Notes: generated by a model from the sequence alone, not told the origin. A DNA stretch of 64,000 nucleotides from an uncultured Chloroflexia bacterium (GCA_963767035.1 CAVYBW010000001.1:2374547-2438546), one strand, 5' to 3'. Shown: positions 6,251-59,334, numbered from the stretch's first letter. Program-made: numbers and translations.

Positions 6251-7197
6251 GCGATTTGCTACGCCAATCTGCTGGGCGCTTGGTGAGTGGGCTGATTGTG
6301 TTGTGGATGGTCAGCATGCTGGCCTTCCTAATTATTCACGCTGCCCCAGGCGATCCAGCTCGCATGCTGTTGAGCGCGAATGGGCTTGATGCGCCGCCAG
6401 CAGAAGCCGTCGCGGCCAAACGGCGTGAGCTAGGGCTTGATCAAGCATTGTTCAGCCAATATGCCACTTGGATGCGCCGAATTGGGCAGGGCGATTTTGG
6501 CATGAGCTATCGTTCGGGCAAGCCAGTTTGGCAAATGTATCGCGAACGCTTGCCAGCAACCTTGCTCATGGCAGGCTTGGCGCTAACGCTCTCGCTGAGT
6601 ATTGCAATTCCCTTGGGCCTAATCAGCGCCATCAAGCGCCATAGTATCTTGGATTATGCGGCCCAACTTTTGGCAGTAATCGGGGCGGCAATTCCAGGCT
6701 TTTGGATTGCGCTGGTGCTCATGTTGGTATTTGCAGCCAAATTGCGTTGGTTGCCAGCCTTGGGGAGTGCCACATTTAAAGGCATGCTGTTGCCAGCAAT
6801 CATCTTGGCCTTGCCGAATATTGCCCTAACCTCGCGCTTGGTTCGCGCCACCACGCTTGATGTGCTAAATCAGCAATATATTGTAACTGCGCGAGCCAAA
6901 GGCCGCTCAGAACATGGATTGTTATTTGTCCATGCCTTGCCGAATATTGCCACCAGTTTAATCACCCCGATTAGCCTAGAGCTAGCCTTTTTGCTAACTG
7001 GCACAGTGATTATCGAACATGTTTTTGCGTATCCGGGAGTTGGGCGGATGGCGGTCGAGGCAGCGTTAGTTGGCGATATGCCAGTTTTGGGCTTGGCAGT
7101 GTTGATCGCAGGAGGAATCTATGTTATCGCTAACTGGTGCGCTGACCTCGGCATGGCAGCGCTTGACCCACGGCTCCGCCAAAAAACATCAAATTGA
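6247..7197 (+). CDS. ABC transporter permease (DppB/OppB-like)
   Basis: 316 aa; multi-TM; start overlaps SBP stop (ATGA). Confidence 0.85.
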   Translation: MSDLLRQSAGRLVSGLIVLWMVSMLAFLIIHAAPGDPARMLLSANGLDAPPAEAVAAKRRELGLDQALFSQYATWMRRIGQGDFGMSYRSGKPVWQMYRERLPATLLMAGLALTLSLSIAIPLGLISAIKRHSILDYAAQLLAVIGAAIPGFWIALVLMLVFAAKLRWLPALGSATFKGMLLPAIILALPNIALTSRLVRATTLDVLNQQYIVTARAKGRSEHGLLFVHALPNIATSLITPISLELAFLLTGTVIIEHVFAYPGVGRMAVEAALVGDMPVLGLAVLIAGGIYVIANWCADLGMAALDPRLRQKTSN

Positions 7198-8084: not shown

Positions 8085-8119
8085 TCCCATCAATCTGTGG
8101 AATCTGTGGCTAAAAAAGG
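8085..8119 (+). repeat. 35-bp dispersed repeat with tandem AATCTGTGG x2 and an A-run (copy 1)
   Basis: catcaatctgtggaatctgtggctaaaaaaggatc matches the reverse complement of about 14392-14427 at 32/35 positions. Confidence 0.6.
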
Positions 8120-8238
8120 ATCTTCGTGGAATTCATGCAATTCGCGGCTAAATAGTGAACTTTCGCGCTCTTCGTGGTCAAAACAAACCCCCGCCACCAA
8201 GCAGGTAGCGAGGGTTATTCGGCCATAGTAAAACCTAA

Positions 8239-14391: not shown

Positions 14392-14427
14392 CATCCTTTT
14401 TTTGCCACAGATTCCACAGATTAATGT
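14392..14427 (-). repeat. 35-bp dispersed repeat (copy 2, inverted relative to copy 1)
   Basis: catccttttttttgccacagattccacagattaatg; its reverse complement matches 8085-8119. Confidence 0.6.
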
Positions 14428-14629
14428 TGCGATAGCCTAATGCCAATAGCCAATAGCCTTACTCCCTGATCCCTGATCACTAGCCCCTGAATCCACATCC
14501 TTCATCGCTCATGCTTAACGACAGCGACTTAAGTCATAGCTAGTCGTGCTATAATCGTTCTAAATAGCATAACAAGATTGCTCAATGGTGCGCGACACTC
14601 GCATCATTGTTATAGGAGCGCATAGCACC

Positions 14630-23052: not shown

Positions 23053-23886
23053 TTATTCACCACGTTGCCAAAGTGCCCATTCGAGCAGTTCCTCGTGATA
23101 ATCAGCTACACAGGCAATCCCAGCCTGAATCCCATCATCAAGGTGCAATAAATCGGCCATACTCATGCGATTCACATCGGGGCTAAATAGTAAATCGGGC
23201 GGCGTTTCACGCAAGCGATGCAAGGTAATTTGATGCACCATAATCCCAATTGCCCGTTCAGCAAAGGCCAATTGGGTCAGCGGAACCCAGCGCCGCCACG
23301 AAAAAAGGCTATTTTGCGCCGCAGCATTAACCTCAAATTGATCAAATTCGCCAATCAAATTGACGGCAATCACCCGTTCAGCGCCAAGTTCACGCGTGAT
23401 ATCAATTGGCAAATTATTGCGAATACCACCATCGGCCAAAATATATTTATCGATCTGGCGTGGTGGAAACACGCCAGGCACAGCGGCACTGGCCAAGGCT
23501 GCTTCAACCAACGAGCCACGTTGCAGCACAACCTCGTGGCCGGTCACCAAATCGACCGCCACCGCTGCATAGGGAATTGGCAAATCTTCAATCAGTTGAT
23601 CGCCCAATAACTCGCCAAGCACGCCAGCCAATTTTTCCGAGCCAATCAAGCCCCAACTGGCTGGGTCAAGGCTAAGTATTCGGCGCAACGGAGTCGATCG
23701 AAAGGCTTGTTCAATCGTCTTGGCATTGTAGCCCGCCGCCACAACCGCGCCAATAATCGCGCCAATACTGGTTCCGGCCACCATATTTGGTTGAATTCCA
23801 ACCCGTTCTAGTTCATGCAGCACGCCGATATGTGCGCTGCCCTTGCCGCCCCCGCCGCCAAGACACAAGCCGATTGTCCGTTGCAT
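23053..23886 (-). CDS. patatin-like phospholipase
   Basis: GGGGGKG oxyanion motif, GTSIG nucleophile motif, DGG catalytic Asp motif. Confidence 0.8.
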   Translation of the reverse strand: MQRTIGLCLGGGGGKGSAHIGVLHELERVGIQPNMVAGTSIGAIIGAVVAAGYNAKTIEQAFRSTPLRRILSLDPASWGLIGSEKLAGVLGELLGDQLIEDLPIPYAAVAVDLVTGHEVVLQRGSLVEAALASAAVPGVFPPRQIDKYILADGGIRNNLPIDITRELGAERVIAVNLIGEFDQFEVNAAAQNSLFSWRRWVPLTQLAFAERAIGIMVHQITLHRLRETPPDLLFSPDVNRMSMADLLHLDDGIQAGIACVADYHEELLEWALWQRGE

Positions 23887-24019
23887 AACCCAACTCCTTG
23901 GTTAAATGACGCGCCGCGTTAGAGTATGCCATGATGGATATAGCATTCTCTCATCCAGCCCGCTCTCCGCACAAGGGTCGGGTTTAACAATGGCATGGTT
24001 TGGATGGGCAATGGTTAAG

Positions 24020-24140
24020 ATTCCCTCACCCCCCAGCCCCCTCTCCCACTGACCGCGGGCGAGGGGGAGCCGTCTTGGATTGCCCATGCATCCACCCCAA
24101 AACCACGCCGTTAAAGCCCCTCGCCCGCGCCATGGGAGAG
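24020..24140. repeat. MITE-like nested palindromic repeat, copy A (ccctcacccc...gggcgagggggag...aaagcccctcgcccgc)
   Basis: shares core sequence with 26864-27180 and 59078-59222; flank ttaacaatggcatggtttggatgggca resembles 26995-27020. Confidence 0.7.
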
Positions 24141-24284
24141 GTGATCATGAACAACAAGGTTAGAAGCTCGCCAATAAACCATTCCAAATAGTGCCGAGCC
24201 AAACATCTATTGCCAACCAAAAACCCACACCTGAAATTACTCAGATGCGGGCTTTGAACGAGATCGATAAGCTTTGATAGGCTT

Positions 24285-25703
24285 CTAGGCAGTTACATTT
24301 TTGCCAATCGCCGCCAGCATATCTTCAATTCGGGTAAATTTAACCCGTGGGCGACCAGTTGCCGCACCGTTGGCAACCTCAATCTCATCGAGTCGTTGCC
24401 AATCGGCAAAGCTCACGAAGTTGGGTTGGCGTTCTTGCACCAATTTCTCAATGCTATCACGCTCGGCATGGCTTGGATTGAGCACCTGCCCAGCAGCTAC
24501 ATCTTCGAGCATACACTGCACAGTTTCAACTGCATCAGGTTTATTGGTGCCAATCACGCCACTTGGCCCACGTTTGATCCAGCCAGCGGTATACTCGCCG
24601 GTTTTGGGCTGTTGGCTGGTTGGGTCGATCAGCCGGCCTTTTTCATTGAGGAAGGTTCCCCAGCGCTCGTTGAATGGTACATCGACCAATGGCGCGCCGC
24701 GATAACCCACCGACCGAAACACCAAGCCGACTGGTAAATCTTCGGTTTCGCCCGTAGCCCGTGAGGCAATACTGCCTGAATCGCTGGCGTAAAGCTCGTT
24801 TTTGGCCAAACGCAAGCCGACCACGCGCCCATCGCTATCGCCGAGAACTTCAGTTGGGCCAACTAAGAAGCGGAAAATCAGCCGACGTTTTTTGCCTGTG
24901 GGCTGACGTTCGGCATAGCCTTGCAGCAATTCGACCTTCTTTTGGGTCGCTTTATCGCCACTTGCTTCTAAGGCCAGACGGCTCACATCATCGAGCGCAA
25001 CTTCGCTTGGCAGCGCCAGTACGTCGGCTTCTTCAAGCTCGCCCAATTCCTTAACTTCGGGAGTGGTAAAAGCAGCTTGAGCTGGCCCACGTCGCCCCAG
25101 CAAATAGACTTCTTTGATTTTGCTTTTACTCAAGGCTTCAAGCGCGTGATCGGCAATATCGGTGCGGGCCAATTCTTCGTGCGACAAACACAAAATCCGC
25201 GCCACATCGATCGCCACATTGCCAACCCCAACCACTGCCACCCGTTCTTGCGAGAGGTCGAATTGCAAATGGCGATAATCGGGATGGCCGTTGTACCACG
25301 CCACAAAGGCCGTCGCCGGAAAACTATTGGTCAGATCCTCGCCAGGAATCCCCATATGGCGATCGCTTTGCGCGCCAGTGGCATAGACAATTTGATGATA
25401 GTGCTCGACTAAATCAGCGTGGCTCACATCTTTGCCATATTCAACATAGCCAAAAAAGCGAAAACGCGGATTTTTAGCAACCAAATTAAAGGCTTTGGTA
25501 ACCGTTTTGATCTTTTGGTGATCGGGGGCTACGCCGCCACGCACCAAGCCAAACGGCGTTGGCAAGCGGTCGAACATATCAACTTCGATAACCAAGTCGC
25601 TTTGTTTAAGCAGGTGATCCGCCGCATAAAATGCCGATGGCCCAGAACCAATGATCGCAACCCGAAGTGGCTGCGCTTCAGTTCCCACAGTTGTCATGAT
25701 CAC
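24285..25703 (-). CDS. fprA: FprA-type NADPH:ferredoxin/adrenodoxin oxidoreductase
   Basis: 472 aa; IIGSGPSAFYAA FAD motif, GLVRGGVAPDH signature, second Rossmann VVGVGNVAIDVARIL. Confidence 0.8.
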   Translation of the reverse strand: MIMTTVGTEAQPLRVAIIGSGPSAFYAADHLLKQSDLVIEVDMFDRLPTPFGLVRGGVAPDHQKIKTVTKAFNLVAKNPRFRFFGYVEYGKDVSHADLVEHYHQIVYATGAQSDRHMGIPGEDLTNSFPATAFVAWYNGHPDYRHLQFDLSQERVAVVGVGNVAIDVARILCLSHEELARTDIADHALEALSKSKIKEVYLLGRRGPAQAAFTTPEVKELGELEEADVLALPSEVALDDVSRLALEASGDKATQKKVELLQGYAERQPTGKKRRLIFRFLVGPTEVLGDSDGRVVGLRLAKNELYASDSGSIASRATGETEDLPVGLVFRSVGYRGAPLVDVPFNERWGTFLNEKGRLIDPTSQQPKTGEYTAGWIKRGPSGVIGTNKPDAVETVQCMLEDVAAGQVLNPSHAERDSIEKLVQERQPNFVSFADWQRLDEIEVANGAATGRPRVKFTRIEDMLAAIGKNVTA

Positions 25704-25718
25704 AATCCTTTTGAGCGT

Positions 25719-26147
25719 CTAGCCCTCTTCGATAATCTGTGTTTCGAGGGTATCAAGCTTGCCTTCATATTCCCCAAGTTGCGCCTTGACAACATCGCCA
25801 ATCGACACAATGCCAAGTAAAATGTCGCCATCGAGAATTGGCAAATGGCGGAAGCGGCGGCTGGTCATGGTCTGGAGCACAGCTTTAAGATCATCACTGG
25901 GGCGACCGGTTATCACATTGGCCGTCATCACATGCTGCACTTCGCGCTCAAAAATTGCTGGGTCTTGGGCGGCTGCCCGAATAATATCCCGCTCGGAGAT
26001 AATTCCTGCAATCCGATCATCTTCAATCACGACTAAAGCACCAATGTTGTGTTCGGATAAAATCGCAACGGCTTGGCTCAGCAGTGTTTGGGGATTAATC
26101 GTATGAATAATTGGACTTTTGGTTGCAAGCACATGCTTGATCTTCAT
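25719..26147 (-). CDS. CBS domain pair protein
   Basis: 142 aa; two CBS motifs. Confidence 0.75.
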   Translation of the reverse strand: MKIKHVLATKSPIIHTINPQTLLSQAVAILSEHNIGALVVIEDDRIAGIISERDIIRAAAQDPAIFEREVQHVMTANVITGRPSDDLKAVLQTMTSRRFRHLPILDGDILLGIVSIGDVVKAQLGEYEGKLDTLETQIIEEG

Positions 26148-26313
26148 AGCGTACCTCCAATCTAGCAGCGAATGGGGACGATGTAGGGCAACGATGCCAT
26201 GCTGATAGTATCATACTTATGTCGCTTACGATATGCAAGATCAATGCCCAACGTGCTTAATCAATAATTAATTTTGGTCACAATCGCTGCCTTGAAATTA
26301 CTTACGAGGTTTT

Positions 26314-26847
26314 ATGCTTGATCCCCAAGTTTTCGCGACCAAACGCTTGGTTGCCAGCGCCATTAGCCTTGAACACGCCGATCTGATCGCGACAATGCAC
26401 CAAAATCCGACCATGATGGCAACCCTTGGGGGCCTGCAAGATCGCCAACGCACGCTGCAAGGTTTGAACACGCAAATAGCTGATTGGCAGCAGGCTGGCT
26501 ATGGCTTATGTGTCTTTCACGATCGAGCGAGCGGGGCGTTTGTTGGGCGCGGTGGCTTGCGTTTATTACAGCTTGACGAGCAGCCAGAGACCGAAATTGG
26601 CTATGCTTTGCTGCCAGAATGGTGGGGCCAAGGCTTGGCGACTGAAATTGCCAGCCAAGCCCGGGAGGTTGGGTTCAGTCAATTGGGGTTAGATTCGCTG
26701 GTTTTATTTACCATGACTACCAATTATGCCTCACAGCGGGTAGCACAAAAATTAGGCATGCGCTACGAACGCAATTTTGAGCGGGCCAATCTGCCGCATG
26801 TGCTTTTTCGCCAAACCAAACACGCATGGGCTGCGAATGGGGTATGA
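26314..26847 (+). CDS. GNAT family N-acetyltransferase (RimJ/RimL-like)
   Basis: 177 aa; LPEWWGQGLATE acetyl-CoA-binding motif region. Confidence 0.75.
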   Translation: MLDPQVFATKRLVASAISLEHADLIATMHQNPTMMATLGGLQDRQRTLQGLNTQIADWQQAGYGLCVFHDRASGAFVGRGGLRLLQLDEQPETEIGYALLPEWWGQGLATEIASQAREVGFSQLGLDSLVLFTMTTNYASQRVAQKLGMRYERNFERANLPHVLFRQTKHAWAANGV

Positions 26848-26863
26848 CATGCGTGGTTATGTT

Positions 26864-27180
26864 CCCTCACCCCAACCCCCGCTCTCACTTAATGCGGGCG
26901 AGGGGGAGTCGCCGTGGATTGACCATGCATCCTGTGAAAACCACGATATTAAAGCCCCTTGCCTCGCTCGGCGGAAGCGGGGGATAGCTTACAAGGGTAG
27001 GTTTTTAACCATGGCATGGGTGGATGGGCATGCATCCATGATCCCCTCACCCCCCAACCCCCTCTCCCACTGAACGCGGGCGAGGGGGAGCCGCCGTGGA
27101 TTGACCATGCATCCTGTGAAAACCACGATATTAAAGCCCCTCGCCCGCGCTACGGGCGAGGGGTTGGGGTGAGGGCATCG
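26864..27180. repeat. MITE-like nested palindromic repeat, tandem double copy B with an inverted terminal copy
   Basis: two units with about 180-bp period, then gcgctacgggcgaggggttggggtgaggg, the reverse complement of the unit 5' end. Confidence 0.75.
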
Positions 27181-27224
27181 CCCATCATGCTAAATCAACG
27201 CTTGAGCAACGTTTGGGTCAGCAA

Positions 27225-27590
27225 CTAGGCTTCGTCGCGGGAAACCCACCATGCCAACCAAATCAGTAATGGTTGGAACGGCAAGCGTAGCCACAACAAG
27301 ATTGGGCGTTGTTTGCCAAACAGCGGTGCATTTTGCTTGAGCATCTGAATATTGGCTGGAAAAACCGCCAAATACAAGGCAATCAAGCCCAAACCAGCCT
27401 TACTCCGCACTTTAGGCAACAACAAGCCTAAGCCGCCTAAAATCTCAAACAAGCCACTGAGATAAACTAAGCTGCGCGGGCGAGGCAACGAAGCTGGTAC
27501 AATCTTGATAAATGGCTTGGGATTGGTAAAGTGTAGAACACCAACCATCATCATAAAACTTGCAAGCAACCCACGAACGAGACGTTTCAT
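27225..27590 (-). CDS. DoxX family membrane protein
   Basis: 121 aa; DoxX-like TM pattern with LFEILGGLGLLLP. Confidence 0.7.
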   Translation of the reverse strand: MKRLVRGLLASFMMMVGVLHFTNPKPFIKIVPASLPRPRSLVYLSGLFEILGGLGLLLPKVRSKAGLGLIALYLAVFPANIQMLKQNAPLFGKQRPILLWLRLPFQPLLIWLAWWVSRDEA

Positions 27591-29468: not shown

Positions 29469-31232
29469 TTATTGAATTGTGGGTAAGAAAAGCGGATTTC
29501 CTACAACAATCACGCCTGTAACCTGATTATCGTTTGAGTTATCACTAGCGGCTACCCCACTTAAATCCAGCTCAAATGATCGTTGGTCGCCTAATGCCGC
29601 ATTTGGCAGACTAACATACACCACAAAGCTGTGCTCGGTACAATTTGCGGCAGTTTGCTCAAGATTCCAGGTATATCTATCGGTTTGAATCGTTGGCGTA
29701 ATTCCACTGGTATCGCTAAGATACTCCACACCATCGGTCAAGGTTAGCGTCACATCGACGGGTTGGTTGATAATTGTGCCATCATTGCCAAGCGTAACTG
29801 GAATCGCCGCAACCTGATTACCAGCAGTGGCAACAACCGGAATACTGTGCAGCCACGTATTGCCACTTTCACGATAGCGCCAAGGTTCGCGGCCAAGCTC
29901 AGCAGTGTGAGCCGCAAAGAATACGCCTTGGGTAGTGGCAAGGAACAAGCCCGGATGGGCATTGGTAGTATTTGAACCAATTGGGCCGACCATGCTTGGA
30001 TTAGTGCCAGCACAGGTTAATTTCCATGGCTGAATAACACCTTGAACGGTAGTGGCACTAAAATATAATTGGTTACCAACTGCTGCCAAGTTATTTGGGT
30101 TGCTACTAGTTGAGCCAGGAAGAATATCGTGCACTAAAGTTGTGCCGGTAATTGTGCCATCGCTGCGCCAAAGTTCGCGGCCATAAGTGGCATGTTCGGC
30201 AGTAAAATAGAGATAGTTTCCAATGACTGGGCCAAAAATCACATTATCAATTCCGTTGGGATTCACATCAATTGGATAGGTTCCCGCAACTGTCCCATCA
30301 GTCCGCCATAAACGATCACCACTGTAATAGGTCATTAATCCAATCCCATTGACGCTGGTGAGTTGCATTGGGACTTCGCCCGCATCAATTCGATTGTCGA
30401 AAGGGATAGTGCCAGTTGGCGTACCATCACTGACGACAACCCCATCCCAAAATGAATTAAAAATCAGTTTGCCACCTGCGACAACTGGCCCCTGAACCTG
30501 AGCATATTTACGGGTGTCAAGCAGAGTAATTTTATAGGTTCCCTCAGCAGTCCCATCAGTCCGCCATAAATCTGAAACAGACCCATATATCCCAATATCA
30601 GTGGTCGATGTAACAAAATAGATCGCCCCATTAAATTCAACTAAACGATCAATGCTCGAAACAAGATTCAGTGAACCATGTACAGTAACTTTTTTGACTA
30701 AAACTGGGGCTAAGGCCTGATCAAGCTTCCAAATTTCAAGCTGCCCTTCGTAGGCAAAAAAGAAATACAAGCTATTTTGAACAACTTGCATGAGGCTAAT
30801 TTTTACAAAACCTGAAGAATAGCTACTTGGATCGAGGCTTACCACCTTGGTGATACTATTAAGTGAGCCATCAGTTTTCCAAATCGAATAGCCATCAGCC
30901 TGGGTATAGGCGGCAATATAAACATACTCGCCATAGCCAACGAGGTATTGTGGCGTAATCGCGTTTTGCTCAGCAGTCGTGAGCATAAATGTCCCATCGG
31001 TTGATCCATCACTGCGCCACAATCCAATCCCGTTGGAGCCATCGTTTGCCACAAAGTAACTTAAGCCATTATAGGCTAGATGAATCGAGTCATTGATAAG
31101 TGCTGGCGCTGTGCCAAAAGCAATATCTTTGATGTTTACGACTGAAGTCTCTGCCCTTACTACGGGCAACCAACTAGTGCCAATCAAGAGTAAGCCAGCA
31201 AGAGCGATGATCTTAAGCCAACTGCGATGCAT
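29469..31232 (-). CDS. secreted ELWxxDGT-repeat protein with C-terminal Ig-like (DUF11-like) domain
   Basis: signal peptide MHRSWLKIIALAGLLLIGTSWLPVVRA; at least 8 repeats of (L/I)W(R/K)(S/T)DG(T/S)xxGT; RBS GAGGAGGA. Confidence 0.7.
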   Translation of the reverse strand: MHRSWLKIIALAGLLLIGTSWLPVVRAETSVVNIKDIAFGTAPALINDSIHLAYNGLSYFVANDGSNGIGLWRSDGSTDGTFMLTTAEQNAITPQYLVGYGEYVYIAAYTQADGYSIWKTDGSLNSITKVVSLDPSSYSSGFVKISLMQVVQNSLYFFFAYEGQLEIWKLDQALAPVLVKKVTVHGSLNLVSSIDRLVEFNGAIYFVTSTTDIGIYGSVSDLWRTDGTAEGTYKITLLDTRKYAQVQGPVVAGGKLIFNSFWDGVVVSDGTPTGTIPFDNRIDAGEVPMQLTSVNGIGLMTYYSGDRLWRTDGTVAGTYPIDVNPNGIDNVIFGPVIGNYLYFTAEHATYGRELWRSDGTITGTTLVHDILPGSTSSNPNNLAAVGNQLYFSATTVQGVIQPWKLTCAGTNPSMVGPIGSNTTNAHPGLFLATTQGVFFAAHTAELGREPWRYRESGNTWLHSIPVVATAGNQVAAIPVTLGNDGTIINQPVDVTLTLTDGVEYLSDTSGITPTIQTDRYTWNLEQTAANCTEHSFVVYVSLPNAALGDQRSFELDLSGVAASDNSNDNQVTGVIVVGNPLFLPTIQ

Positions 31233-31351
31233 AGAAGTCCTCCTCACAATAAACATAAAACCAGCCTTCCACAAGTCAACTATAGCACCATACAAGCCGA
31301 TTATTGTAGTGGTACTTTGGTTGGATATTCAGCAACGTGCGCATATCTCGT

Positions 31352-35893: not shown

Positions 35894-35923
35894 CTAAGTG
35901 TGTGCTATTATACATAGGTCAAC

Positions 35924-35998
<75 letters not shown>

Positions 35999-36043
35999 AA
36001 CTAAAGATTTGAGCGGCTTGCTAAACAAGCCGCTCATTCTGTG

Positions 36044-36119
<76 letters not shown>

Positions 36120-46954: not shown

Positions 46955-47214
46955 GGGTCAGGGGTCAGGAGCTAGGGTTCAGAAAATATATGTTAACCAC
47001 GAAGGACACGAAGCGCACGGAAGATGCGATTTAACGCTTTTACGTTGTGTCCTGTGTCCTTCGTGGTTCATCATTGTACCTTTGGCCTTCTGATTTTCAT
47101 CCCTGCATCCTTTGACTTTCGCTTTCTGCCTTTTGATTTTTGCCTTTTGCCTTCTGACCTCATCCTTCACACTTATTAATACTCTGCTAGTTTTTTTCTG
47201 GCCTAAATTGTGCG

Positions 47215-54496: not shown

Positions 54497-54618
54497 CAAG
54501 TTTATAAGGCTATCAGCTTTTGGCTATTGATATCGATAATTTTCCAACAGTCAAAAGCTGATAGCCTTCACGTTCTTCGTGGTTAAAACACCTGATCGCT
54601 AACAACGAGCCCTGAAGC

Positions 54619-57174: not shown

Positions 57175-59061
57175 ATGAATGGTGGAGGCTGGCGAGGGTT
57201 TGTTCGCGCCAATGAAGACGAACAACCCACCATCAGCCGCATGTTGTTGCAGCGTGTATGGGGTTATGCCAGACCCTATCGCCGCGGCATCATTGTGGTC
57301 TTAATTACAATTTTTATCGGAACCTTGTTGGATCGGATTACGCCGTTGTTGGTGCGCCATTTAATCGATGTGGCGATTCCGCAGCGCAATCTTGGGCGGT
57401 TGAATCTAGTAGCAGTGGGCTTGGTTGCCATTCCACTGGTTGGTGGGTTGCTCGATATTTGGCAACGCCGCCATTCAGCGCTGGTTGGCGAAGGCATTAT
57501 TTTTGATCTGCGCCGCAGTTTGTATAGCCATATGCAGCGTATGAGCCTGCGCTTTTTCACCAGCACCAAATCGGGCGAATTGGTTTCGCGCCTAAATAAC
57601 GATGTGGTTGGCTCGCAACGCGCGGTTACCGGCACATTGATTACGCTGATCACCAATATCATCACTGTCAGCATTACGCTCTTTATTATGTTGACGATCG
57701 AATGGCGCTTAACCTTATTGGCCTTGCTGGTATTGCCATTATTTATGCTGCCAGCGCGGCGCGTTGGCAAGATTGTACGAACCCTCACGCGCTCGCAGAT
57801 GCAGGCCAACGGCGAAATGAACGCCTTGATGGGCGAAACTCTGAACGTAAGCGGGGCGTTACTGGTCAAGATTTTTGGTCGTCGCCATGATGAAGTTGCC
57901 AAGTTTAGCCACCATGCTGGCGAAGTGCGCGATCTCGGCATTCGCACATCGCTGGTCATGCGCTCATTTTTTGTGATGGTTGGCTTGGTGAGCGCGGTTG
58001 GCGTAACCTCAGTTTATTGGTTTGGTGGCTACCTCGCGATTACCTCCGATAGCTTTAGCACCGGCGATATTATTGCTTTGGCGTTGTATTTGCCGGGCTT
58101 GTATGGCGCAATTTCAACCTTGGTCAATACCCGGGTTGAATTGGCATCGTCGCTAGTTTCGTTCGAGCGGGTGTTCGAAATTCTCGATTTACCCCAAGAA
58201 ATTCTCGACCCAGCCGAGCCTAAGCTACTTGATTCGATTCGTGGCGAAGTTCAATTTGAGCATGTCTGGTTTCGTTATCAAGCTGATGATGATACAATTC
58301 TTAGCCCACGCAATGGCCAAGAAACCACCATCATTAGCCCAATTACCAGCCGCGAATGGGCCTTGGAAGACATTGATTTTACGGCCAAGCCTGGCCAATT
58401 AGTCGCTTTAGTTGGGCCATCAGGTGCTGGCAAAACCAGCCTAACCTATCTGTTGCCACGCTTGTATGACGCTAGCCGAGGCCGCGTGCTGATCGATGGC
58501 GTTGATGTGCGTGAATTGGATTTGGATAGCCTTGGCCAAGCAATTGGCATGGTTACCCAAGAAACGTTCTTATTCCACGAGAGTTTGCGGGCCAATTTAC
58601 GCTATGCCAAAGCCGATGCGACTGATGCCGAATTAGAGGCCGCCTGTCGCGCTGCCAATATTCACGAGCTGATCAGCAGCCTGCCGAATGGCTACGATAC
58701 GGTGGTTGGCGAACGGGGGTATCGCTTCTCTGGTGGCGAAAAACAACGGATCGCAATTGCGCGGGTTATTCTCAAAAACCCGCGCATTTTGGTGCTCGAT
58801 GAGGCCACCTCTGCGCTCGATTCACGCTCAGAGGCATTAATTCAAGCTGCCTTGCAACCATTGCTCAAAGATCGCACCAGCATTGTCATTGCCCACCGGC
58901 TTTCGACCATTCTCGCGGCTGATCTGATTTTGGTCGTCGATCAAGGCCAAGTGCTCGAACGCGGCACTCACAGCGAGTTATTAGCCCAAGCAGGGCTGTA
59001 TGCGCAGCTGTATCATACCCAATTCAAAGAGCGCGAGGAGCATTTAGAGCAGCGAGCATAG
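57175..59061 (+). CDS. ABC transporter, fused permease/ATP-binding exporter (MsbA-like)
   Basis: 628 aa; 6 TM then GPSGAGKTS Walker A, LSGGEKQRIAIAR signature, ILVLDEATSALD Walker B. Confidence 0.9.
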   Translation: MNGGGWRGFVRANEDEQPTISRMLLQRVWGYARPYRRGIIVVLITIFIGTLLDRITPLLVRHLIDVAIPQRNLGRLNLVAVGLVAIPLVGGLLDIWQRRHSALVGEGIIFDLRRSLYSHMQRMSLRFFTSTKSGELVSRLNNDVVGSQRAVTGTLITLITNIITVSITLFIMLTIEWRLTLLALLVLPLFMLPARRVGKIVRTLTRSQMQANGEMNALMGETLNVSGALLVKIFGRRHDEVAKFSHHAGEVRDLGIRTSLVMRSFFVMVGLVSAVGVTSVYWFGGYLAITSDSFSTGDIIALALYLPGLYGAISTLVNTRVELASSLVSFERVFEILDLPQEILDPAEPKLLDSIRGEVQFEHVWFRYQADDDTILSPRNGQETTIISPITSREWALEDIDFTAKPGQLVALVGPSGAGKTSLTYLLPRLYDASRGRVLIDGVDVRELDLDSLGQAIGMVTQETFLFHESLRANLRYAKADATDAELEAACRAANIHELISSLPNGYDTVVGERGYRFSGGEKQRIAIARVILKNPRILVLDEATSALDSRSEALIQAALQPLLKDRTSIVIAHRLSTILAADLILVVDQGQVLERGTHSELLAQAGLYAQLYHTQFKEREEHLEQRA

Positions 59062-59077
59062 GGATCGGGGATTGGTT

Positions 59078-59222
59078 GCATTCCCTCACCCCCCAACCCC
59101 CTCTCCCACAGTGCGGGCGAGGGGGAGCCTCAAAAACGCGGGTTTCTCCGTGCAATCGCGCTGAAACCACGAGGTTAAGCCCCTCGCCCGCTGCGTGGGA
59201 GCGGGGTTGGGGTGAGGGGATA
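59078..59222. repeat. MITE-like nested palindromic repeat, copy C, with ~25-bp terminal inverted repeats
   Basis: 5' ccctcaccccccaaccccctctcccac ... 3' gtgggagcggggttggggtgaggg; internal gggcgagggggag and cccctcgcccgc complementary segments. Confidence 0.75.
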
Positions 59223-59334
59223 ATCAACATTCGTTAATGCTATGTGCCAGTACCCATAGCCCTTTTGTGGATCAAAAACCTGCCAACATCCATTACACTA
59301 TAGCCATTGTTTTGAGCAAGGAGGCTTGAACTGT

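Follow-up and report, generated by a model that had tools for sequence, protein, structure and literature searches.

The stretch of DNA analysed here, a window of 64,000 nucleotides from an uncultured Chloroflexia bacterium (GCA_963767035.1 CAVYBW010000001.1:2374547-2438546), belongs to a contig of 3.69 Mb and was placed in the genus Herpetosiphon through its flanking proteins. Three loci of the window carry four units of one GC-rich repeat, all of them intergenic and on the + strand. Copy A lies between the tandem genes of a FAD oxidoreductase (24285-25703, - strand) and a patatin-like protein (23053-23886, - strand), copies B1 and B2 lie between convergent genes encoding a GNAT protein (26314-26847, + strand) and a DoxX protein (27225-27590, - strand), and copy C, which begins 22 nt past a stop codon, lies between the tandem genes of an ABC exporter (57175-59061, + strand) and a zinc alcohol dehydrogenase (ADH). 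A preliminary description of this DNA had assigned all copies to 3' intergenic spaces, which applies to the convergent genes around B1 and B2 but is only partly right, because A and C sit between tandem genes and are also upstream of the next gene.

The repeat family was present at the three loci where it had been described, and well above chance. With up to two mismatches allowed, CCCTCACCCCNNNNCCCC was found at six sites of the window against 0.28 expected and GCGGGCGAGGGGGAG at four against 0.10; AAACCACGNNNTTAAAGCCCCT, with up to three mismatches, was found at three sites against 0.05. A complete unit (B2 and C) is an inverted doublet of one arm around a spacer of 45-50 nt. The arm consists, in order, of a C-block (CCCCTC[G/T]CCC), a loop, a G-block (GGG[A/C]GAGGGG), TT, and a further G-block, GGGGTGAGGG. 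The 5' half of the unit reads CCCTCACCCC(CC)AACCCCCTCTCCCAC, loop, GCGGGCGAGGGGGAG, followed by the spacer, which ends in AAACCACG-NNN-TTAAAG; after the spacer, the 3' half reads CCCCTCGCCCGC, loop, GGG[A/C]G[A/C]GGGG-TT-GGGGTGAGGG. When 15 Herpetosiphon cores were aligned, their spacers had GAGC, AACCAC and TTAAAG in common and varied in the middle.

The two arms are mutually reverse-complementary, and each single arm is also an imperfect palindrome, confirming the nested internal complementarity described before. Complete copies were predicted to fold into one long hairpin, with energies of -41 and -49 kcal/mol as DNA (z = -6.3 and -8.0) and -78 and -93 kcal/mol as RNA (z = -7.2 and -9.4), and truncated units folded more weakly (z = -1.95 for B1). 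Copy C had been described as a clean element of ~145 bp at 59078-59222 bounded by terminal inverted repeats (TIRs); its core is indeed complete, but it spans 59083-59218 and measures 136 nt. Likewise, the tandem double unit with a period of ~180 bp was borne out in its spacing, as 180 nt separate the starts of B1 and B2, whose identity is 94% across 94 nt, but together they amount to only ~1.7 units, and Tandem Repeats Finder reported no array.

Cores occur in two kinds of outer context. In "type I", a linker, TTACAAGGGTAGGTTTT..., joins cores in tandem and may carry a further flanking CCCTCACCCC / GGGGTGAGGG pair; A, B1 and B2 of the window belong here. In "type II", the core lies within outer inverted repeats of 13-15 nt, (NN)TGTACTGGTTCAT ... 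ATGAACCAGTACA(CA), giving a total of 176-197 bp. The parts of the window copies are as follows.

23971-24022, + strand: "type I" shell to the left of copy A, a linker reading ACAAGGGTCGGGTTT...GGATGGGCAATGG and related to the one between B1 and B2
24023-24141, + strand: copy A, 3'-truncated, with 5' arm, spacer and the first portion of the 3' arm, without the terminal TT-GGGGTGAGGG
24023-24069, + strand: 5' arm of copy A, followed on the same strand by a spacer containing AAACCACG..TTAAAG
24114-24141, + strand: remnant of the 3' arm of copy A, CCCCTCGCCC-loop-GGGAGAGG, ending after the first G-block
26864-26984, + strand: copy B1, with 5' arm (26864-26908) and spacer intact, a degenerate 3' arm (CCCCTTGCC...GCGGGGG, + strand) and no GGGGTGAGGG
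26985-27043, + strand: "type I" shell joining B1 to B2, a linker reading TTACAAGGGTAGGTTTTTAACC...GGATGGGCATGCATCCATGATC, with an exact ACAAGGGTAGGTTTT at 26991-27005
27044-27175, + strand: copy B2, a complete core of 132 nt, with 5' arm 27044-27090 and spacer 27091-27133
27134-27175, + strand: 3' arm of copy B2, CCCCTCGCCCG-CGCTA-CGGGCGAGGGG-TT-GGGGTGAGGG
59062-59082, + strand: left "type II" shell remnant of copy C, GGATCGGGGATTGGTTGCATT, its outer left inverted repeat gone
59083-59218, + strand: copy C, a complete core of 136 nt, with 5' arm 59083-59127 and 3' arm 59177-59218
59128-59176, + strand: spacer of copy C, inverted in part relative to the family consensus
59219-59258, + strand: right "type II" shell of copy C, ending with the outer inverted repeat ATGTGCCAGTACCCA (59242-59256) and then TA (59257-59258)

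The left linker of copy A contains ACAAGGGTAGGTTTT with two mismatches (23971-23985), and the B1-B2 linker motif also flanks cores in other Herpetosiphon genomes, in both orientations. Copy C is the sole window copy with an outer repeat, having retained the right one and lost the left. The right repeat was also recovered as CTATGGGTACTGGCACAT on the - strand at 59242-59259 with three mismatches (0.02 expected by chance). The left remnant, which the stop codon of the ABC gene directly adjoins, is comparable to ...CATTGGATTGGCAACCGTGTC followed by CCCTCACC in two other stretches (L036 and L130).

Identity and distribution of the arms

Judged by their sequence, the arms are the BoxC / PIT / "TMECO" intrastrand-triplex motif, known from Escherichia coli and many other bacteria, and the window repeat is a doublet form of this family with a Herpetosiphon-specific spacer. 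Earlier work on BoxC/PIT is reportedly that of Bergler and Bachellier in the 1990s and of Hoyne and Maher in 2000-2002. The ends of ~25 bp, which the preliminary description took for the TIRs of a transposon, are instead the outer blocks of two inverted copies of this motif, and the pan-bacterial nature of the arms went unrecognised there. Holder et al. (2015) defined the motif, earlier named BoxC and PIT, as 5'-CCCTCNCCC-N3-6-GGGNGAGGG-N3-GGGNGAGGG-3' and counted 23 copies in E. coli K-12, five of them inverted pairs, and 3,610 copies in 262 proteobacterial genomes, with related GC-rich motifs abundant in cyanobacteria (PMC4666352).

The Herpetosiphon arms share with TMECO the same three blocks with near-identical 9-mers (CCCTC[G/T]CCC, GGG[A/C]GAGGG and GGGTGAGGG) and the G.A "mm" mismatch type, the commonest one in E. 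coli. Both are intergenic and multi-copy, occur as singlets and as inverted pairs, and vary locally between close relatives. The three-block order (a C-rich 9-mer, a loop, its G-rich complement GGGNGAGGG, a short loop and a second G-rich 9-mer GGGNGAGGG) was found in both arms of B2 and C and in the 5' arms of A and B1. The strict published pattern gave no match on either strand of the window because the lengths of the G/C runs and loops differ, and a relaxed regular expression matched the 3' arms of B2 and C. Whereas TMECO has 9-nt stems and loops of N3-6 and N3, the Herpetosiphon arms have G/C runs of 10-12 nt, a first loop of 5-9 nt and a second loop of 2-4 nt. The Herpetosiphon doublet further differs in its genus-specific, partly conserved spacer and in its outer inverted repeats and linkers, and its host belongs to the Chloroflexota, a phylum absent from the main text of the TMECO study (PMC4666352).

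A counterpart in E. coli is the inverted BoxC pair of 128 nt in the lldD-trmL spacer of E. coli K-12, which has the same architecture and size as B2 and C. Its 5' part reads CCCTCACCC-TAA-CCCTCTCCC-TCA-GGGAGAGGG, followed by a 57-nt spacer, and its 3' part reads CCCTCGCCCC-TCC-GGGGAGAGGG-CCG-GGGTGAGGGG; the pair begins 11 nt past the lldD stop codon and carries no annotation in RefSeq. The sequences KP-PGQ-3 and KP-PGQ-5 of Klebsiella pneumoniae (GGGAGAGGGCCGGGGTGAGGG and GGGGAGAGGGGAAGGGTGAGGG), tabulated as conserved G-quadruplex (G4)-forming sequences (PMC11170735), correspond to the two G-blocks (G1 and G2) of the same motif; they were described there as isolated G4s, with the hairpin partner, the doublet and the repeat nature left unconsidered.

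When the 5'-arm pattern was scanned over one genome per species, it matched at least 116 genome stretches from more than ten phyla. The matches listed included Chloroflexota (several Herpetosiphon species), Cyanobacteria, Armatimonadota, Planctomycetota, Acidobacteriota, Gemmatimonadota, Proteobacteria and others. Because so many phyla were matched, and because the C-block, which the pattern did not constrain, was present in 119 of 134 matches listed and an inverted partner lay within 220 nt in 29 of 125, the arm is pan-bacterial and doublets are common. The spacer is lineage-specific. A metagenome scan for the Herpetosiphon spacer type yielded no match; a second metagenome scan returned no further Herpetosiphon copies and instead doublets of another, AT-rich lineage (~115 nt, L150-L162), with their own conserved spacer AATCCGGGCGYTCGGAA and often at contig ends. 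BLAST searches gave no match to phage genomes, and against plasmids only arm matches of ~45 nt on replicons of Pseudanabaena, Azospirillum and Cupriavidus (large plasmids or chromids). In IMG/VR, 16 contigs of the viral collection (L134-L149; phages or host fragments) matched the generic 5'-arm pattern, some of them two or three times.

Within Herpetosiphon, 43 arms were counted in 247.5 kb of sampled DNA, a sample biased to repeat-bearing places, with six arms in the 64-kb window, which suggests hundreds rather than three copies per 6-Mb genome. Independent assemblies and contigs end within the repeat, as expected for a multi-copy element. The family is therefore multi-copy beyond the three window loci, and a merely local duplication was rejected, since copies lie on many contigs of several Herpetosiphon genomes. 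A search of the literature on Herpetosiphon repeats brought up nothing specific.

Turnover at orthologous spacers and outer boundaries

The window was compared with H. giganteus, H. llansteffanensis, H. aurantiacus, H. gulosus, H. geysericola and strain NSE202, for which a crude tree from ABC-gene identity was ((aurantiacus, gulosus), (window, ((NSE202, giganteus), llansteffanensis, geysericola))). Four orthologous spacers were polymorphic among these seven genomes, the comparison covering repeat-bearing spacers only. The GNAT-DoxX spacer (26848-27224 in the window) holds 1.7 forward units in the window, a single forward unit with a short spacer in H. giganteus, a single forward unit with a decayed 5' arm in H. 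llansteffanensis, and a single unit in the opposite orientation in H. aurantiacus-like contigs. In NSE202 and H. geysericola the element is absent and the spacer is only 62 nt long (6367-6428 in both L123 and L125), consisting of a canonical bidirectional terminator, AAAAAGCATGAATCCCTGC...GCAGGGATTCGTTTTT; this terminator is absent in the window and three other genomes, where the repeat takes its place. The DoxX proteins of H. giganteus and NSE202 are identical, yet the element is present in one and absent in the other.

The ABC-ADH spacer contains the full element in the window and NSE202, only its 5' half in H. llansteffanensis and only its 3' half in H. aurantiacus, and it is empty in H. 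giganteus and H. geysericola. An ancestral insertion at this site followed by clean loss is possible; the copies differ between species in their loops and spacer. Upstream of the ABC gene, the Zn-peptidase-ABC spacer has an extra element only in H. aurantiacus. Copy A marks a synteny break (23887-24284): the patatin-like gene adjoins the FAD oxidoreductase gene in the window, and in the five sister genomes that keep this neighbourhood (L118, L122, L123, L125 and L126) an ABC2_membrane or peptidase gene takes its place and the site is free of BoxC-like elements. The presence/absence polymorphism anticipated for sister genomes was therefore found, and the suggestion of recombination-prone sites gained support from the repeat's occurrence at places of rearrangement. 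Since orthologous spacers differ in presence, orientation, copy number and truncation, the family is gained or lost, inverted, duplicated and truncated over the time in which species diverge.

The CCCTCACCCC and GGGGTGAGGG ends of the window copies are in no case flanked by direct repeats, so these inner ends show no target-site duplications (TSDs). All six complete "type II" copies have TA on both sides. In NSE202 the sequence reads CTA[TA]{element}[TA]GCC and in its sister H. giganteus CTA[TA]GCC, a difference of exactly the element plus TA, which in this one pair places the boundary ~30 nt outside the CCCTCACCCC/GGGGTGAGGG ends, at the outer TGTACTGGTTCAT repeats. Elements of the IS630 / Tc1-mariner type duplicate TA, IS630 at CTAG, and the "type II" pattern is what a TA-duplicating transposase would produce, although it is suggestive only. 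[quoted passage not shown] Unlike such MITEs, copies A and B of the window lie outside a "type II" shell and copy C is without its left end, and no autonomous parent with such ends was found in the sampled Herpetosiphon DNA.

Proposed mobility and possible functions of the repeat

On balance, we consider it fairly probable that the unit is a REPIN/MITE-like non-autonomous repeat of ~130-136 bp, belonging to a known, functionally unexplained class. REPINs are hairpin-forming doublets of repetitive extragenic palindromic (REP) sequences mobilised by RAYT transposases (Bertels and Rainey 2011; PMC3116915, PMC3337134), and they are characterised by imperfect palindromes in inverted orientation, by spacers varying from copy to copy and by singlets that have decayed (PMC3337134). 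The unit likewise combines two inverted imperfect palindromes and a spacer in what is predicted to be one hairpin. Its singlets resemble decayed doublets, it occurs in tandem clusters and nested longer palindromes, and its palindrome ends are without TSDs. The third block of each arm, GGGGTGAGGG, lies outside the palindrome, unlike in REPINs. REP sequences are, moreover, normally genome- or clade-specific, whereas arms of the Herpetosiphon type are nearly identical across more than ten phyla and only the spacer is lineage-specific. The mosaic of palindromic units and a few linker motifs, in tandem and in alternating orientation, is also reminiscent of the bacterial interspersed mosaic elements (BIMEs) of enterobacteria, although the unit sequences differ. 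BIMEs are bound by IHF, gyrase and Pol I.

A non-autonomous mobile element had also been proposed in the preliminary description. Its dispersed, non-coding, hairpin-forming nature and inverted ends were upheld, but not the CCCTCACCCC...GGGGTGAGGG ends as TIRs with TSDs. The behaviour is that of a REPIN or MITE (non-autonomous, hairpin-forming, multi-copy and dynamic), while family membership itself is unproven. As a REPIN/MITE-like repeat, the DNA would fold into a long hairpin or cruciform, spread in intergenic DNA and then decay. It would be copied by an enzyme supplied in trans, for which there are two candidates: a TA-duplicating DDE transposase, for the sub-type inside the outer TGTACTGGTTCAT inverted repeats, or a Y1/RAYT-like single-strand transposase acting on hairpins. 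Copies may be lost or halved through hairpin-promoted deletion. The repeat would have no dedicated cellular function; the very stable hairpin that it places close to the 3' ends of genes, and the local instability of the genome, would be by-products. Accounts that go further are tentative and rather unlikely: in Herpetosiphon, larger inverted-repeat elements flanked by TA would carry the BoxC/PIT doublet as their core, or the doublet would serve a Y1/RAYT-type enzyme as its substrate hairpin.

An IS605-type TnpB element is inserted in H. gulosus (L165 150-1400) where H. aurantiacus has none. Both its ends carry GC-rich hairpins; one end has CTCCATCCC..GGGTGGGG, the other CCTCGCCC-CTTGT-GGGCGGGG and then TAGGTTGAC. 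They faintly resemble a BoxC arm plus the GGGTAGGTTTT linker, which makes the element a lead towards a Y1 transposase and not a result.

Several points weigh against a REPIN/MITE-like repeat. No recurrent mobility gene was found in the 8-kb stretches around the 116 listed cross-phylum copies, where an all-against-all BLAST of 3,239 open reading frames (ORFs) returned only ABC ATPases, two-component proteins, dehydrogenases and the like. Nor was there one among the 25 commonest Pfam families of the 53 ORFs around nine Herpetosiphon copies, whose surroundings were housekeeping genes. Holder et al. likewise report no mobility genes near the motif in E. coli (PMC4666352). No insertion sequence (IS) with outer TGTGTACTGGTTCAT ends turned up in the sampled Herpetosiphon DNA, and the sole nearby IS, by the H. 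llansteffanensis locus (L126 3073-4115), was rejected as a parent on account of its unrelated ends. A RAYT or Y1 gene did not turn up in the ~0.25 Mb sampled, which was not a genome-wide search. The copy-number estimate, too, comes from the biased 247.5-kb sample.

The loci themselves raise further difficulties. At GNAT-DoxX the element replaces ~80 nt including the terminator and is not a clean insertion. Same-site copies differ between species in loops and spacer, and ancestral presence with fast turnover is therefore indistinguishable from hot spots at which insertion or conversion recurred. The TA on either side is set among TA-rich "CATAG" repeats and may come from the inverted repeat, not from a duplication. 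Finally, the cross-phylum near-identity of the arms fits ordinary genome-specific REP/REPIN evolution poorly and is not explained by it; this near-invariance fits neither a REPIN nor a MITE family well.

Alternatively, the doublet could be a functional RNA 3'-end element, kept as a (bidirectional) terminator or as a 3' hairpin shielding upstream mRNA from exonucleases, which we regard as possible though unlikely. Protection of upstream mRNA by a 3' hairpin has been shown for some REPs. Each of the three loci is downstream of at least one gene (copy C only 22 nt past the stop), the repeat occupies the place of the bidirectional GNAT-DoxX terminator of NSE202 and H. geysericola, and the predicted RNA hairpin is very stable (-78 to -93 kcal/mol). 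A CTTTAA / GTGGTTTT stretch is conserved in the family, and B2 has a weak terminator-like site on the - strand, made up of its 3'-arm hairpin and the CTTTAATATC that comes next. On the + strand, however, no U-tract follows the hairpin, and no terminator was called at copy C; the terminator role suggested in the preliminary description found no support from a canonical signature on that strand. The gene upstream of copy A, that of the FAD oxidoreductase, has its own intrinsic terminator between itself and copy A (about 24224-24262; AAAAACCCACACC-loop-GCGGGCTTT in + strand letters, the gene being on the - strand). This terminator is conserved in every Herpetosiphon genome compared, and copy A lies beyond it. 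Halved or truncated copies are frequent, sites are empty in close relatives, and E. coli PIT elements showed neither promoter nor terminator activity (PMC4666352).

It is improbable that the repeat is selected as non-B DNA, with an intrastrand purine-motif triplex or a G4 pausing replication or promoting recombination and so yielding useful variation. [quoted passage not shown] In the window, GGGCGAGGGGTTGGGGTGAGGG (27154-27175) and GGGAGCGGGGTTGGGGTGAGGG (59197-59218) conform to the canonical quadruplex rule of four runs of at least three G with loops of 1-7 nt and are thus putative G4s, and the matching Klebsiella sequences are listed as G4-forming (PMC11170735). In the doublet, ordinary hairpin pairing would compete strongly with such structures. 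The Herpetosiphon loci are strikingly variable, and one is at a synteny break, but any long palindrome or mobile repeat would equally be expected to be unstable, and selection for "evolvability" is not demonstrated.

The classical MITE as first drawn, a cut-and-paste element whose TIRs are CCCTCACCCC...GGGGTGAGGG and which makes TSDs, is quite improbable. Copies C and B2 are bounded by inverted ends of ~25 nt, are shorter than 200 bp and have no coding capacity, and the family shows presence/absence polymorphism. Nevertheless, the inner ends of the window copies lack flanking direct repeats, and the same ends occur in more than ten phyla within a three-block motif of which there are also singlets. 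In the cleanest filled/empty pair the boundary lies ~30 nt outside them, and the outer contexts of the cores are of at least two kinds.

That the repeat is a gene for a structured non-coding RNA, or a cis-regulatory RNA, is highly improbable: the predicted RNA structure is very stable and the spacer holds conserved unpaired stretches (AACCAC and TTAAAG), but Rfam at gathering thresholds found only two tRNAs in the window, relaxed scans gave chance-level hairpins (E of at least 0.015), truncated copies are numerous, and both orientations are seen relative to the same flanking genes. Across the 15 copies, pair counts were 89% for a local-hairpin model and 93% for the long-hairpin model, without significant covariation in either. 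The two models are inseparable because both are ~90% paired without significant compensatory change, and it follows from the latter that sequence, not merely structure, is conserved.

Gene calls, other repeats and significance

Six ORFs of at least 60 amino acids overlap the repeats, but none of the six was found in the protein collection, and the spurious ORF calls that had been anticipated are not documented for this genome. In H. llansteffanensis (CP188824; L126 6442-7029) the GNAT protein is called with 195 amino acids instead of 176, as its frame runs on into the decayed 5' repeat arm. The last codons of the ABC exporter gene (59035-59061 in the window; about 4360-4400 in L130 and L131) vary by species because the reading frame enters intergenic repeats, giving ...REEHLEQRA* in the window and ...REELVRDEG* in NSE202, the latter encoded by GGGATGAGGGATGA. 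The alcohol dehydrogenase gene, for which a mechanical ORF starts at TTG 59326, probably begins at ATG 59335, with GGAGG at 59320-59324; gene callers in sister genomes give 344 amino acids, starting further upstream within the repeat-rich spacer.

The window contains other short intergenic repeats, including a 34-nt inverted pair, AATCTGTGGAATCTGTGGCTAAAAA, at 8088-8121 (+ strand) and 14393-14426 (- strand), 6.3 kb apart. Further families are GCC(T)AATAGCC, CTTCGTG(N)CCTTCGTGG, CAGAAGGCAAAAGGC and a 24-nt hairpin, with further sites at 14435-14451, 46997-47013, 47142-47156 and 54506-54568; in sister Herpetosiphon genomes, long runs of the same families (GGATGAAGGATGA, CATAGAACATAG) fill the orthologous spacers. 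A pair of neighbouring tRNA-Met (CAT) genes lies at 35923-35997 and 36043-36118, 46 nt apart. A 43-nt direct repeat, 88% identical (30270-30312 and 30528-30570, 258 nt apart, in the region of the long ORF at 29469-31295 on the - strand), probably stems from a repeat within the protein.

In practice, short-read assemblies break at the BoxC-like repeats, which can also extend or change the called ends of adjoining genes. Catalogues of BoxC/PIT/TMECO repeats go back to the 1990s for E. coli and have covered hundreds of genomes since 2015, with their function, mobilising enzyme and cross-phylum constancy unexplained. New here is a Chloroflexota lineage with an abundant doublet form. Because close relatives differ at the same sites in presence, orientation, copy number and truncation, Herpetosiphon is a convenient natural experiment for the mechanisms of copying and loss. 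If the doublet does travel as a TA-flanked core or as a Y1/RAYT substrate, its filled, empty, inverted and half sites could reveal how a BoxC-type motif is copied and why it is nearly invariant.

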